Below, in pieces: positions 3,221 to 6,207 of a DNA stretch of 64,000 bases. Within the stretch, counting starts at the first letter, position 1, and every line of letters begins with the position of its first letter. This DNA comes from an uncultured Candidatus Saccharibacteria bacterium (GTDB lineage: Bacteria; Patescibacteriota; Dojkabacteria; GCA-002793355), in NCBI GenBank assembly GCA_964525295.1, contig CAZGEO010000002.1:258551-322550 (forward strand), in the 5' to 3' direction. The translations under genes were made by a program, and so were the position numbers. A model generated the notes under the pieces. That model had not been told where the DNA came from, did not search any database, and saw only the letters and a program-made list of their open reading frames with translations.

Positions 3221-4336
3221 ATGGCACAATTATTAGAACCAGGCGCGCAAAAATTGATTTCTTCAAAGAGGGTAGTCAAGCACGAAGATACAATCTATGA
3301 ATACGAAATTACTGTTAATGGCGCAGTACAGAAAGAAGTATATGAAAAGCTATTTGCAGCAAAAGCAAAAGAAGTAGAAGTCAAAGGATTTCGCAAGGGT
3401 GAAGCTCCACGAAATATTGTTGAACCTCAAATTTATGGAGATGTTTCAAAAGAGATGATTAATTTGATGATCAACTATTCAGTTGAAGAATTACTTACCG
3501 AAGAGAAGATCATTGCAATTACAACACCAGATGTCTTAGACGCAAAATTTACTATGGTAGAAAGCCCTTTGGTGTTCACATTGAAAATAGATCGATTGCC
3601 AGATTATAAACTGCCAGACATGAAAAAATTCCAAGTAAAAGAACCAAAAATTGAAGTTTCAGAAGAAGACATTAAAACAGCAAAAGAGAATCTTTGGAAA
3701 GAATGGGAGAAGAAAGCAAAAGAAGAAGATAAGAAGGAATATGCAGAACTTTCTGATGCTTGGGTAGAGAACCAAATGAAAATTCCAAATGTTAAAACTG
3801 TAGCACAATTAGAAGTTCTTCTTCGTGAAGAATTGGAACATGCGAAATTACATCAAGAGCAAGACAAAGTGGTATCTGATACTCTTGAAAAAGTAATTTC
3901 TACAGTTGGCATCAAAGTTCCAGCGTATGCAGTTGAGAAAAGTGTTGAAGCAAATAAAAAGGCTCAAGAAGAACAAATGAAGCAGTATGGCATTACCTTT
4001 GCCGATTATCTTAAGCACTATAACAAAACAGAAGAAGAGTATACGAAAGAAGTCTCAGAGCAATCAGAGAAGCGATTCAGAGAAGATGTTTTCTGGACAT
4101 TGTTCATTAAAGATCGTGGCATTAAGATTAATCCACAAGATCCAAAAGATATTGTGTATATCAACTATGCAGCATCGGCAATGAGAATTAAACCAGATGA
4201 GAAGCTTTCGCAGCGACAAGTTGATGTGATTTTGCAAACTGCAGCAATGTACAAAGCTGTTCAGCAATTCCGTGACGAAATTGGTTTGAAAGCTCACGAA
4301 GAACCAGAGATTGCTGTTGGAGAAAACAAGGCGTAA
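3221..4336 (+). CDS. tig: Trigger factor (short form)
   Basis: GFRKGEAP ribosome-binding signature. Classic tig-clpP neighbourhood. Confidence 0.75.
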   Translation: MAQLLEPGAQKLISSKRVVKHEDTIYEYEITVNGAVQKEVYEKLFAAKAKEVEVKGFRKGEAPRNIVEPQIYGDVSKEMINLMINYSVEELLTEEKIIAITTPDVLDAKFTMVESPLVFTLKIDRLPDYKLPDMKKFQVKEPKIEVSEEDIKTAKENLWKEWEKKAKEEDKKEYAELSDAWVENQMKIPNVKTVAQLEVLLREELEHAKLHQEQDKVVSDTLEKVISTVGIKVPAYAVEKSVEANKKAQEEQMKQYGITFADYLKHYNKTEEEYTKEVSEQSEKRFREDVFWTLFIKDRGIKINPQDPKDIVYINYAASAMRIKPDEKLSQRQVDVILQTAAMYKAVQQFRDEIGLKAHEEPEIAVGENKA

Positions 4337-4385
4337 AGTAATTATTAATTATTAATTATCAGTGGTAGGTAGGAATTGATTTCTT

Positions 4386-4394
4386 TGCTATAAT
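4386..4394 (+). promoter_or_regulatory. Extended -10 element TGcTATAAT upstream of tRNA-Arg
   Basis: TG-n-TATAAT read directly in the sequence, 58 nt before the tRNA 5' end. Confidence 0.35.
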
Positions 4395-4451
4395 CATTAA
4401 TAATTACGAATTGATAATTAGCAAGCAATGAATATCGGCATGCCCGTTTTG

Positions 4452-4525
4452 GTCCCAGTAGCTCAATTGGATAGAGCAGTCCCGTCCTAAGGGAAAGGTT
4501 GTGAGTTCGACTCTCGCCTGGGGCA
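4452..4525 (+). tRNA. tRNA-Arg (anticodon CCT); CCA not encoded
   Basis: Manual cloverleaf. 7-bp acceptor stem (one G-U pair), D-arm gctc/gagc, anticodon loop gtCCTaa, T-arm gtgag-ttcgact-ctcgc, discriminator A. Confidence 0.85.
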
Positions 4526-4532
4526 GTTTGTT
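4508..4532 (+). repeat. Direct repeat copy 1 (25 nt, cgactctcgcctggggcagtttgtt). Spans the tRNA-Arg T-loop and 3' acceptor end plus 7 nt of flank.
   Basis: Exact 25/25 identity with 4762..4786. Confidence 0.7.
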
Positions 4533-4761
4533 GCTACCACTCGGGCTGAAAAATATTTTTTCAGCTTATCCTCATTCCCGCACCAAAGCTGGCCCAGGGA
4601 AATCCAAAGCAGATATAAATGCGAGTCGAAACTCAAACGAGACAACAACAATTTGTTGTCGAGAGAAGAGTGGGGCTGCGCCTAACAACCGCTGAAAATT
4701 CAAGGTGCAATTTCAGTGATGAATCAACAACGGAAGATGAATCCTGAAATTGGTGGGTAGC

Positions 4762-4786
4762 CGACTCTCGCCTGGGGCAGTTTGTT
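4762..4786 (+). repeat. Direct repeat copy 2, an att-like duplicate of the tRNA-Arg 3' end. The upstream arm is a degenerate T-arm.
   Basis: Exact 25-nt match. The preceding approximately 12 nt resemble the tRNA T-stem but are diverged. The stop codon of the 4785..5531 minus-strand gene lies inside the repeat. Confidence 0.7.
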
Positions 4787-5531
4787 AGAAGCTATCTGGT
4801 TCGTGAAGACTATCTTCTGGACGTTTTTTGGTTATTTTTCTTTGTCTACCTGGAGCAGTACCGACCCCAGTCATCATCTTTCCGACTCTTCCTTGCGCAT
4901 GTTCTTTTCGGCGACTGGCACCCTCAAGTTCAATGGTAATTGCCGTAATAGTTTCGCCGTTCTTTAACCGTTCGAGCACTTCATTATCATCGCCAGAGTC
5001 AGATTGTAACCAAAAATCGCCGTCAAATAACTCTTGTGGAAGTCGTTTAATATTTTTAATTGAACGCTTTGGGAAGGTATCGGTACGAAATGTAATAATA
5101 ATGAAATCGAGTGTGTTAGTCAGTTTGATTTTAATACGTGGAGATTTTGTAGCATCTTGCGGTGGAAGATATTCCATGATCTCAATATCCGCTTCAGGGG
5201 CTCTTGTGTATCTGTTTAAAAGATATGTTGCAGCATGTATTGGACCAGCAGATGTGTTAAAAAGATTGTGCATATGAAAAGATACGTAAATTCGTTCAAG
5301 TTGTTGCATTGGATTATTTTGGGGGGTGAAAAAAGTTTTATCAGAAGCATCGCTTACGATACCTAAATCTTCAAGAATCTTTCTTTTTGCTGAATGAAGC
5401 CATTTTGTTTGTTTTTTCCACTCGTTATTACTATATTGTGCCGCTTTTGGCTGTGGATTGACATATTTTTTTGTGCAATCAATACTTTCAAGTTTTTTGG
5501 GTTCAAGTGCATTTAGATTGTGCATATACAA
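4785..5531 (-). CDS. Hypothetical protein (248 aa) with a basic Gly/Arg-rich C-terminal tail
   Basis: Long ORF with a coding-like composition. No motif I can assign. No tyrosine-recombinase R-H-R-Y pattern. Confidence 0.5.
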   Translation of the reverse strand: MYMHNLNALEPKKLESIDCTKKYVNPQPKAAQYSNNEWKKQTKWLHSAKRKILEDLGIVSDASDKTFFTPQNNPMQQLERIYVSFHMHNLFNTSAGPIHAATYLLNRYTRAPEADIEIMEYLPPQDATKSPRIKIKLTNTLDFIIITFRTDTFPKRSIKNIKRLPQELFDGDFWLQSDSGDDNEVLERLKNGETITAITIELEGASRRKEHAQGRVGKMMTGVGTAPGRQRKITKKRPEDSLHEPDSF

Positions 5532-5593
5532 TTATATCGTATACGAAGTGTAAAAATTAAATTACGCTCAAAAGAACATCTAGAATTCAAATT

Positions 5594-5602
5594 TGCTATA
5601 AT
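5594..5602 (+). promoter_or_regulatory. Extended -10 (TGcTATAAT) 5 nt upstream of the clpP ATG, implying a leaderless clpP mRNA
   Basis: Read directly in the sequence. Confidence 0.4.
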
Positions 5603-5607
5603 TCACT

Positions 5608-6207
5608 ATGAAACCAATGTCAAATCTAGTAATTCCAACAGTATTCGAAACCGATCGTAGCGGAAACCGCACCTATTACGATATATATTCACGTCTCTTA
5701 AAAGACAGAATAATTTTTCTGAACGGACCCGTAAATGACCAGGTCGCAAATCTTTTGATTGCGCAGATGGTTTTTCTTGAAAAAGAAAATCCAAAAGAAG
5801 ATATTCAACTTTACATTCAAAGCCCTGGTGGTTCTGTTGCTGCAGGTTTAGCATTATACGATGCAATGCAGTATCTGAAACCGGATGTTGTCACAATTGG
5901 AATGGGAAGTATCGCATCAATGGCATCATTATTGCTTTCAGCAGGAACAAAAGGCAAGAGATTTATGTTGCCTCATGCAAGAATTATGATTCATCAAGTT
6001 AGAGTTTCTGGAATGCCAGGAATGACGGCGACCGAATTGATGATAGAAAATAATGAGATGCAAACTAACAAGCAAATGCTTAACGACATTCTCGCAAAGC
6101 ACACCGGGCAAAAAGTACAAAAAATACAAATCGACACAGAATTAGATAAATGGATGTCGGCAAATGAAGCTGTCGAATATGGCTTAGTTGATAAAGTACT
6201 TACTTAG
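5608..6207 (+). CDS. clpP: ATP-dependent Clp protease proteolytic subunit
   Basis: Ser-His-Asp context: GMGSIASMAS, IMIHQ. Confidence 0.9.
   Translation: MKPMSNLVIPTVFETDRSGNRTYYDIYSRLLKDRIIFLNGPVNDQVANLLIAQMVFLEKENPKEDIQLYIQSPGGSVAAGLALYDAMQYLKPDVVTIGMGSIASMASLLLSAGTKGKRFMLPHARIMIHQVRVSGMPGMTATELMIENNEMQTNKQMLNDILAKHTGQKVQKIQIDTELDKWMSANEAVEYGLVDKVLT

Follow-up and report, generated by a model that had tools for sequence, protein, structure and literature searches.

The genome of a Candidatus Dojkabacteria bacterium (Patescibacteria/CPR) carries an exact 25-nt direct repeat of the end of its tRNA-Arg(CCT) gene, and the best explanation that we can offer for it, with a probability of about 0.55, is a degraded attL/attR scar of a Campbell-type site-specific integration, similar to a very small CIME. 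We keep our confidence at this level because our searches returned neither an integrase nor an intact element, nor an empty site in the same species. The analysis covered the window, a stretch of 64 kb, together with the locus of a sister strain (L024) and ten related Dojkabacteria loci (L004-L009, L026, L106, L107 and L108). The initial annotation had proposed that the segment bracketed by the repeat was either a degraded remnant of an integrative element or a small structured RNA. Considering the tDNA configuration, the lineage specificity, the GC content and the length polymorphism, the first proposal is favoured, even if, with neither an integrase nor an intact element recovered, the case for it is circumstantial. 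The scar is most likely of an ordinary kind and not a new RNA.

This reading suggests that a genome of the Dojkabacteria, a group whose genomes are tiny, has received an integration into the 3' end of its tRNA-Arg(CCU). The general picture is left unchanged, with a small piece of natural history added. Island finders would discard such a sequence because it is shorter than 2 kb and has no integrase; the 25-nt core and the arm sequences could help to trace the parent, be it an element or a phage, in this uncultured lineage.

The duplicated end of tRNA-Arg(CCT)

The tRNA-Arg(CCT) gene, the presumed integration target, is intact and has no encoded CCA (4452..4525, + strand; detected by ARAGORN and by the Rfam tRNA model with 53.1 bits). 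It stands right after tig, an arrangement kept in all Dojkabacteria relatives. The first repeat copy, an attL-like core of sequence CGACTCTCGCCTGGGGCAGTTTGTT, lies at 4508..4532 on the + strand and joins 18 nt of the tRNA, which begin within the T-loop and end with the discriminator A, to 7 nt of trailer, a composition already proposed and now confirmed by the tRNA limits that ARAGORN and Rfam give. The second copy, an attR-like core at 4762..4786 (+ strand), consists of the displaced tRNA 3' end (4762-4779) followed by the 7 nt of flank; it is identical in L024, and it shares its final 2 nt with the stop codon of ORF246, encoded on the - strand. As originally claimed, the copies are exact and the gap between them (4533-4761) measures 229 bp.

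Exactly two occurrences of the 25-mer were found in the 64 kb, both on the + strand. Shuffled sequences gave matches in 0 of 100 cases even when 3 mismatches were allowed, so that zero are expected by chance. The block of identity begins with base 3 of the 7-nt T-loop (CGACT...), and similarity falls off sharply on either side of the 25 nt, which is not what uniform decay of a duplicated tRNA gives.

We then compared this arrangement with known tDNA islands. In the Islander work, an intact tDNA with a downstream 3' fragment in the same orientation is the signature of an island, crossovers map to one of three places (anticodon loop, T-loop, T/acceptor junction), and islands are 2-200 kb long and have an integrase gene that lies within the interval or overlaps it (PMC4383910). 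Our locus has the intact tDNA, the downstream fragment in the same orientation and reaching the 3' end, a block of identity that starts in the T-loop and an unoccupied site in related genomes (10/10 loci without the fragment), but the interval contains no integrase and, with 229 bp (119 bp in L024), lies far outside the 2-200 kb range. In E. coli, argW, a tRNA-Arg(CCU) gene and thus the same tRNA species, holds the prophage KplE1 between duplicated cores of 16 nt (PMC2951348), whereas the exact core is 25 nt here. Tyrosine-integrase islands such as KplE1/CPS-53 therefore resemble our locus in the regenerated tRNA with a displaced direct 3' fragment, in the identity block, which reaches from the T-loop to the 3' end, and in the empty site of relatives; they differ in that only 229 or 119 bp separate the cores here, with no integrase, no cargo and no known parent.

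The similarity to CIMEs lies in two identical cores, att-like in their sequence, in the lack of recombination genes and in what would be decay by deletion between two strains. Described CIMEs are generally kilobases long, and a functional ICE or IME that has a cognate integrase is either their neighbour or their relative. No partner of this kind was seen here, and the host belongs to the Patescibacteria/CPR.

A scenario of integration followed by decay would run as follows. The incoming DNA would have borne its own version of the tRNA end, starting in the T-loop and reaching 7 nt beyond the gene; the crossover would have remade an intact tRNA (copy 1) and pushed the original 3' end (copy 2) downstream, where it would still abut its old flank, the stop codon of ORF246. 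The genes of the element would then have been deleted, leaving only the DNA beside the att cores (229 bp here, 119 bp in L024). The hairpins and the CTGAAA-type repeats that survive would probably be former binding sites of the recombinase or of accessory proteins, and today the hairpins may serve at most as terminators between the convergent tRNA and ORF246. The pre-integration site reconstructed in this way (tRNA, 5 nt, ORF246 stop codon) is compact but coherent. In this scenario an empty site would read GTGAGTT + core + AGAAGCTATC (in its longer form ...GGTTGTGAGTT-CGACTCTCGCCTGGGGCAGTTTGTT-AGAAGCTATC...) and a parent element GGTGGGTAGC + core + GCTACCAC; an excised circle, if the att sites were still active, would read ...TTGGTGGGTAGC-core-GCTACCACTCGG....

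Content of the bracketed segment in two strains

The L024 contig comes from a sample different from that of the window, and its clpP is identical to the window's at 599 of 600 nt (99.8%), meaning that the strains are near-clonal. Results showed that L024 carries the same two repeat copies but only 119 bp between them. It is without ~110 bp of the segment, including two of the three hairpins, and its right part consists only of ~19 nt of different sequence, so that this half is dispensable. The segment can accordingly be divided into a P'-arm-like left part (4533..4632), near-identical in both strains, and a P-arm-like, strain-variable right part (4633..4761), delimited by the alignment with L024. 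Positions 4526-4632 are identical to L024 at 106 of 107 nt, and this 99% identity is uninformative as a sign of selection because clpP of the two strains is already 99.8% identical.

Three perfect hairpins had been reported in the segment, two of which stood. Hairpin 1 (GCTGAAAAA-TAT-TTTTTCAGC, 4545-4553/4557-4565) is a perfect 9-bp stem in the left part; it starts 13 nt after repeat copy 1, appears in the MFE folds of both strains and holds two CTGAAAAA motifs in opposite orientation. This hairpin may be the terminator of the tRNA transcript; it is A/T-rich, is followed by TTATCC and went unflagged in the terminator scan, which picked out only the hairpin at 4661-4643 on the - strand, downstream of ORF246 and with a weak T tail. 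Hairpin 2 (GACAACAA-CAAT-TTGTTGTC, 4641-4648/4653-4660) is perfect over 8 bp, scores as terminator-like on the - strand and is absent in L024. The third, CTGAAAATTCA/TGCAATTTCAG (4692-4702/4706-4716), is only 82% complementary as written, with a perfect 9-bp alternative formed by CAATTTCAG (4708-4716) and CTGAAATTG (4744-4752).

A motif scan located three CTGAAAWT motifs at 4691..4752 (4692 on the + strand, 4709-4716 on the - strand, 4744 on the + strand), which form alternative hairpins. Thus 3 of the 22 matches in the whole window lie inside 60 nt, and counting the CTGAAA type as a whole the segment has five. From its sequence, this cluster could represent candidate arm-type sites of a recombinase. 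In addition, the segment ends in a terminal inverted repeat: GCTACCAC (4533..4540), abutting copy 1, pairs with GTGGGTAGC (4753..4761), abutting copy 2. The two match at 8 of 9 positions at the exact ends, a value equalled by 5 of 20000 shuffles in a post hoc test, as the inverted-repeat and P-side motif tests were both picked after inspecting the sequence. Neither feature extends to L024, where the right inverted repeat is absent, the right end reading TAGTGAC, and the P-side motifs are not conserved.

The GC content of the segment is 0.46, compared to 0.26-0.38 in most other intergenic stretches and 0.38 genome-wide. Taken with the inverted repeats and the CTGAAA cluster, it points to recombination-site DNA, and the segment looks foreign or site-like. 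Together with one core it measures 229+25 = 254 bp; the length of attP is quoted as ~250 bp (PMC4383910). All six frames of 4526-4790 contain stops, in agreement with the initial statement that no credible ORF exists, and no recombinase gene lies between the copies. We also considered a relic coding sequence and rejected it, since six-frame translation of the segment gave only short, stop-ridden peptides. As for the diverged T-arm that had been noticed, GTGGG (4753-4757) can pair with CTCGC (4767-4771) across a 9-nt loop in the window, and this pairing is missing in L024.

The tRNA-clpP slot and the search for a parent element

The relatives were found by an alignment-based scan of genome contigs, a single tig protein query having given none, and a metagenome scan with the tig alignment yielded only one further close relative, L026. 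The second repeat copy was absent in all ten related loci, which retain tig-tRNA-Arg(CCT) with a single 3' end. In five of the ten, including L005, L008, L009 and the fully syntenic L106, clpP directly follows the tRNA, which we read as the empty-site state; on this comparison, the insertion is specific to the lineage of the window strain and L024. An empty site of the same species was not found because both known strains of the species, the window strain and L024, are occupied. The comparison of occupied and empty sites that had been called for thus returned the empty sites and no longer insert. The same arrangement without a longer insertion in relatives was to have indicated a simple local duplication; this holds in part, the sole such relative, L024, being shorter, but the term is not apt either, as the 229 bp copies nothing nearby. 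Neither the 64 kb window nor the fetched loci contained a further copy of the segment. The long tRNA-clpP spacer of L007 shares a 10-mer (GAGTCGAAAC) with it and no real similarity on alignment. L007 and L106 likewise carry a hairpin immediately downstream of the tRNA.

The slot between tRNA-Arg and clpP shows itself to be a strain-variable hotspot. In relatives it is empty in some and holds a 185-aa MFS gene in others, with no att copies; here it holds ORF246 with or without a NUDIX hydrolase gene. The latter, on the right side of the slot, is intact in L024 and deleted in the window strain, where a remnant persists (5540..5585, + strand), and deletions between short repeats (TTCAAATTT) were seen in the slot. 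Its conserved right border is formed by clpP with its promoter (5586..6207, + strand; promoter TTTGCTATAAT at 5592-5602). The length difference of the segment and the NUDIX deletion would together indicate a decay in progress.

ORF246 (4785..5525, - strand) encodes an orphan protein, is convergent with the tRNA and adjoins copy 2; it probably represents the chromosomal flank (B') that the target site had from the start, or else an island of greater age. Among 5.8 billion clusters only one other turned up (P0122, 70% identity); the copy of the sister strain was the sole homologue both there and when 1.84 billion representatives were searched exhaustively with HMMER. The protein matched no Pfam or PHROG family and its AlphaFold model was uninformative (pLDDT 38), but a dN/dS of 0.24-0.4 indicates a real gene. 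We also considered ORF246 as a hidden recombinase and discarded the idea, the protein having no recognisable family and a single homologue only. As observations that speak against a scar, the lineage-specific genes (ORF246 and NUDIX) lie outside the repeat pair and not inside it, and the insert is shorter, not longer, in the one relative that shares the arrangement.

We also searched for the integrase and for the parent element. No phmmer match with XerD or lambda Int was found in the 64 kb, which is a weak negative. The 25-mer, a 24-mer and two arm sequences had no exact match in IMG/VR or in JGI metagenomes, and distant-mode BLAST found nothing in phage or plasmid records. Viral contigs, JGI metagenomes and phage or plasmid records yielded no intact element, attP, further copy of the segment or related ICE/IME. 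A search with the 21-nt tRNA end had one hit only, L109, a phage tRNA array whose tRNA-Leu is unrelated.

Other origins of the repeat

The alternative that survives best requires no dedicated recombinase: a small piece of DNA, foreign or rearranged, with at least ~25 bp of homology to the tRNA end would have entered a generally unstable slot by a single homologous, microhomology or illegitimate crossover, and the tRNA-end duplication would be a by-product, no mobile element having ever been present. The turnover of the tRNA-clpP slot without att copies in relatives, the short-repeat (TTCAAATTT) deletions in the same slot and the failure to find an integrase or a parent element are all consistent with this. 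On the contrary, 25 bp of homology is about the least that homologous recombination needs, the repeat begins where integrases canonically cross over, the inverted repeat abuts both cores, and no other match to the 229 bp was found in the window. We consider this origin unlikely.

It is less probable again that the segment is complete in itself, that is, a non-autonomous mini-element of ~250 bp made of nothing but attP arms with inverted repeats at their ends (CIME- or MITE-like), which could still be excised and integrated in trans by an integrase from a phage or from another part of the genome. Its two ends, which share the terminal inverted repeat GCTACC(C)AC, the CTGAAAWT sites clustered on both arms and a length near the ~250 bp of attP would suit such an element, as would the intact and identical att-like cores flanking the segment, which the definition of a CIME requires; described CIMEs, however, are decayed ICEs or IMEs (PMC5704250). 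The 64 kb also has only one copy of the segment, none of the collections searched contains it, L024 is without the right inverted repeat and the P-side motifs, and the window contains no integrase that we could find. A MITE would likewise be short and non-coding, with terminal inverted repeats (8/9 nt here) and a flanking direct repeat. A tRNA-derived duplication of 25 bp is nevertheless far above the usual target duplications of transposases, no dispersed copies with short target-site duplications were found, only one copy being present in the 64 kb and the fetched loci, and the inverted repeat is not kept in L024. That a living mini-element of ~250 bp is still moved in and out of tRNA-Arg(CCU) by a trans-acting integrase in a CPR bacterium seems slightly more doubtful still, and a variant in which its transcript mimics a tRNA 'top-half' is less likely.

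We have little faith in the proposal that the segment and copy 2 form a functional structured RNA, co-transcribed with tRNA-Arg or transcribed alone, acting as a tRNA top-half mimic (processed by RNase P/RNase Z) or as a regulatory or terminator module. It is true that the fold of the + strand is more stable than those of shuffled sequences (-82.8 kcal/mol, z = -3.4), that a GC of 0.46 is unusually high among the non-coding DNA of this genome, that the left 100 nt is kept in both strains and that GCTGGCCCAGG (4587-4597) and GCGAG (4621-4625), both in the left part, could form base pairs with copy 2 in its acceptor and T-stem strands. The short form of L024, however, folds at chance level (z = -1.4), and this near-clonal strain is without ~110 nt that include two hairpins and the T-arm-like stem, and the left part, with its 99% identity, does no more than reflect the 99.8% of the core genome. 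The core pairing is equalled in 16% of shuffles: the tRNA-like closing helix of 4586-4598 with copy 2 was reached by 319 of 2000 and was therefore rejected as evidence. The covariance-model scan that had been suggested, run on 3800-5600 and on L024 at E<=10 and on the whole window at gathering thresholds, returned only tRNAs, the real tRNA being the only Rfam match at E<=10 in both strains. ARAGORN added nothing with a relaxed score, with introns up to 300 nt or in tmRNA mode, and no relative has a homologue. Known tRNA-like RNAs (the tmRNA domain, YrlA/Y-RNA-like RNAs, top-half minihelices) are alike in a 3' end made of the T-stem/acceptor strand and in a possible upstream pairing; they differ from this segment, which has no covariance-model or ARAGORN support, pairs at chance level, varies between strains and is without homologues.

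Finally, an assembly artefact or a chance match is effectively refuted, since zero matches are expected from shuffles and since the Logan contigs of the window's own sample, which do break inside the bracketed segment, break only at the perfect 4641-4660 palindrome, the two contigs overlapping and agreeing with the window, and a single L024 contig from an independent sample spans both copies.

A duplicated tRNA end and the segment behind it

The genes for an Ig-like protein, a sortase, an AP-endonuclease-like protein and trigger factor (3221-4336) precede tRNA-Arg and the segment studied here, which is followed by ORF246, clpP (5608-6207), thrS, infC, rplT and pheST. Both ARAGORN and Rfam placed tRNA-Arg(CCT) at 4452-4525 on the + strand, without an encoded CCA. 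The 25-mer CGACTCTCGCCTGGGGCAGTTTGTT, composed of 18 nt of the tRNA (from the third T-loop base to the discriminator) and 7 nt of trailer, is found in two exact + strand copies, at 4508-4532 (copy 1) and 4762-4786 (copy 2), which confirms the duplication described in the initial annotation. These are its only matches in the 64 kb with up to 3 mismatches allowed, and 0 of 100 shuffled sequences contained a 25-mer match.

The 229 bp between the copies (4533-4761) carry stops in all 6 frames, in agreement with the earlier view that they hold no credible ORF. Three perfect hairpins had also been proposed: two of them pair perfectly (4545-4553/4557-4565, whose two arms are both made up of CTGAAAAA, and 4641-4648/4653-4660), while the third needs a bulge in the form originally given, an alternative at 4708-4716/4744-4752 being perfect over 9 bp.

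The tRNA-clpP slot in relatives and in a sister strain

We compared ten related Dojkabacteria loci (L004-L009, L026, L106, L107 and L108). In 10/10, tRNA-Arg(CCT) directly follows tig and has a single 3'-end copy, so that the duplicated end is specific to the lineage of the window. In L005, L008, L009 and L106 (L106 being fully syntenic), clpP lies 40-230 bp after the tRNA, which represents an empty site. An MFS-like gene follows the tRNA in L004, L006, L007, L107 and L108; in L107 and L108 it is annotated as coding for a 185-aa MFS protein and occupies the place directly between tRNA and clpP, and these five loci have no duplicated tRNA end. Across the group, then, the content of this slot varies. 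Right after tRNA-Arg, L007 (5296-5330, GTTTGAAAACTTAGGATTTTCCTAAGTTTTCAAAC), L106 (5575-5612) and L009 (3842-4070) also have strong hairpins or inverted repeats; as these are common in the group, hairpin-rich DNA alone is not diagnostic.

A sister-strain contig from a different sample, L024, shares the tRNA, both 25-mers and the abutting ORF, and its clpP is identical at 599/600 nt, indicating essentially the same species. Its repeat copies are 119 bp apart, compared with 229 bp in the window. Results showed that 4526-4632 is identical at 106/107 positions, which is uninformative beyond the closeness of the strains. In the right half, L024 lacks ~110 bp, among them hairpins 2 and 3, and the ~19 nt leading up to copy 2 differ; half of the segment is thus dispensable. 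Further along the slot, identity is about 93% over 4791-4950, 100% over a 143-nt block (4950-5092) and about 62% over 5093-5550, and returns to 99.9% from the clpP promoter onward.

ORF246 (4785-5525, - strand), between the segment and clpP, has one homologue, P0122 on L024 (1422-2159), among 5.8 billion protein clusters, and the sister-strain copy is again its sole match among 1.84 billion representatives, which marks it, by these searches, as a true orphan. Comparison of the two strains shows it to be a real gene: dN/dS is 0.24 for the highly diverged N-terminal half (about 62% nt identity; dS about 1.4) and 0.4 for the C-terminal half. Its pattern of identity suggests that this fast-evolving gene has become a recombination mosaic. 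Between ORF245 and clpP, L024 has an intact gene (897-1406) for a 169-aa NUDIX hydrolase; that gene survives in the window only as fragments (about 5540-5585), with its ATG start changed to ATA and one deletion falling between TTCAAATTT repeats. The mosaic and the deletions together indicate that this locus actively gains and loses DNA.

Proposed integration and its alternatives

An intact tDNA followed by a displaced 3'-end fragment in the same orientation is the textbook signature of an island (PMC4383910). The window has the same configuration, with an identity block that begins at the T-loop and extends past the gene end, and KplE1, which sits in E. coli argW with a 16-nt duplicated core, shows that tRNA-Arg(CCU) can serve as a target (PMC2951348). 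A foreign element would have integrated at the tRNA-Arg 3' end by attP x attB recombination and then been deleted down to its att-proximal arms, whose decay would still be seen between the window strain and L024. From the configuration and the sharp edges of the perfect 25-nt block, which such recombination is expected to leave, we give this reading a probability of about 0.55. A decaying tandem tRNA copy would not be expected to leave such edges. Removing the segment and one core yields a compact site with the ORF246 stop codon 5 nt from the tRNA end, a plausible ancestral site. On this reading the segment would be akin to a CIME, though very small; a CIME retains attL and attR after losing its genes (PMC5704250).

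The remnant of an integrative element suggested initially is hence favored by configuration, block edges and strain decay, but its source was not recovered: neither the segment nor the 64 kb yielded an integrase (a weak negative, as the XerD and lambda Int queries were approximate), and searches of IMG/VR, JGI metagenomes and phage and plasmid records turned up no parent element. No same-species empty site was found, both known strains being occupied. Nor are ORF246 and NUDIX located between the two repeat copies; both fall outside them. Capture of DNA without a recombinase, in a slot as unstable as this one, is a possible but clearly less likely origin.

Several features, tested post hoc on data already seen, fit recombination-site DNA and are suggestive only, the right-hand ones not being retained in L024. 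GC of 4526-4784 is 0.46, the highest among intergenic stretches of the window (most are at 0.26-0.38; genome average 0.38). The segment starts with GCTACCAC and ends with GTGGGTAGC, an 8/9-nt inverted repeat flush against both cores and equaled in 5 of 20000 shuffles, and CTGAAAWT occurs 3 times within 4692-4751 versus 22 times in 64 kb. Segment plus core measure 254 bp (229+25), near the ~250 bp quoted for attP (PMC4383910). An attP-only mini-element of roughly this size, still mobile and mobilised in trans, is unlikely.

Less likely still is a functional RNA. The + strand of the segment folds well (z = -3.4), but this signal comes from perfect hairpins that lie in the dispensable half, and the short L024 form is unremarkable (z = -1.4). 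Apart from that form in L024, the segment has no homologues. The MFE structure is closed by pairing of GCTGGCCCAGG (4587-4597) with the acceptor strand in copy 2; a possible further pairing of GCGAG (4621-4625) with the T-stem strand there would give the look of a tRNA "top-half"; however, 16% of shuffled segments pair equally well with the 25-mer, and the local GTGGG/CTCGC "T-arm" is missing from L024. Rfam at E<=10, in the window and L024, returned the true tRNA alone (over the whole window, three tRNAs and no more), and ARAGORN, run at reduced thresholds, allowing introns as long as 300 nt and in tmRNA mode, added nothing to it, so that the structured RNA mimicking a tRNA end, also proposed initially, finds no backing. 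That the repeat arrangement is an artefact is scarcely credible, as the Logan contigs of the source sample, SRR11582162_641 and SRR11582162_624, overlap by 28 nt and agree with the window, and a single contig from another sample covers both copies. Both Logan contigs end at the perfect palindrome GACAACAACAATTTGTTGTC (4641-4660), an assembly break from the hairpin that has no meaning as a biological boundary.

Host lineage and neighboring signals

Read as integration followed by deletion, the locus would be an ordinary tDNA integration scar, the unusual part being the host group. Trigger-factor homologues assign the host to Candidatus Dojkabacteria (Patescibacteria/CPR), the nearest other lineages being just 64-72% identical in this protein. 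The trigger factor (3221-4336; homologues P0001-P0021) is short (~370 aa) and matches Trigger_N and Trigger_C only; the FKBP/PPIase domain (PF00254) was not detected in the window, Dojkabacteria or other CPR trigger factors and is present in the listed homologues of ~424 aa or more.

The 73-kb viral contig L109 (IMG/VR UViG_3300027851_000017) packs at least 16 tRNA genes into 9.8 kb, and a tRNA-Leu(TAA) on it (5859-5942) ends in the same 21 nt as the window tRNA-Arg; the two are unrelated. An extended -10-like motif, TTTGCTATAAT, lies 5' of both tRNA-Arg (4384-4394) and clpP (5592-5602), and CTGCTATAAT lies upstream of clpP in L106 (about 5683-5692); motifs of this type are probably the local promoter consensus of the lineage.
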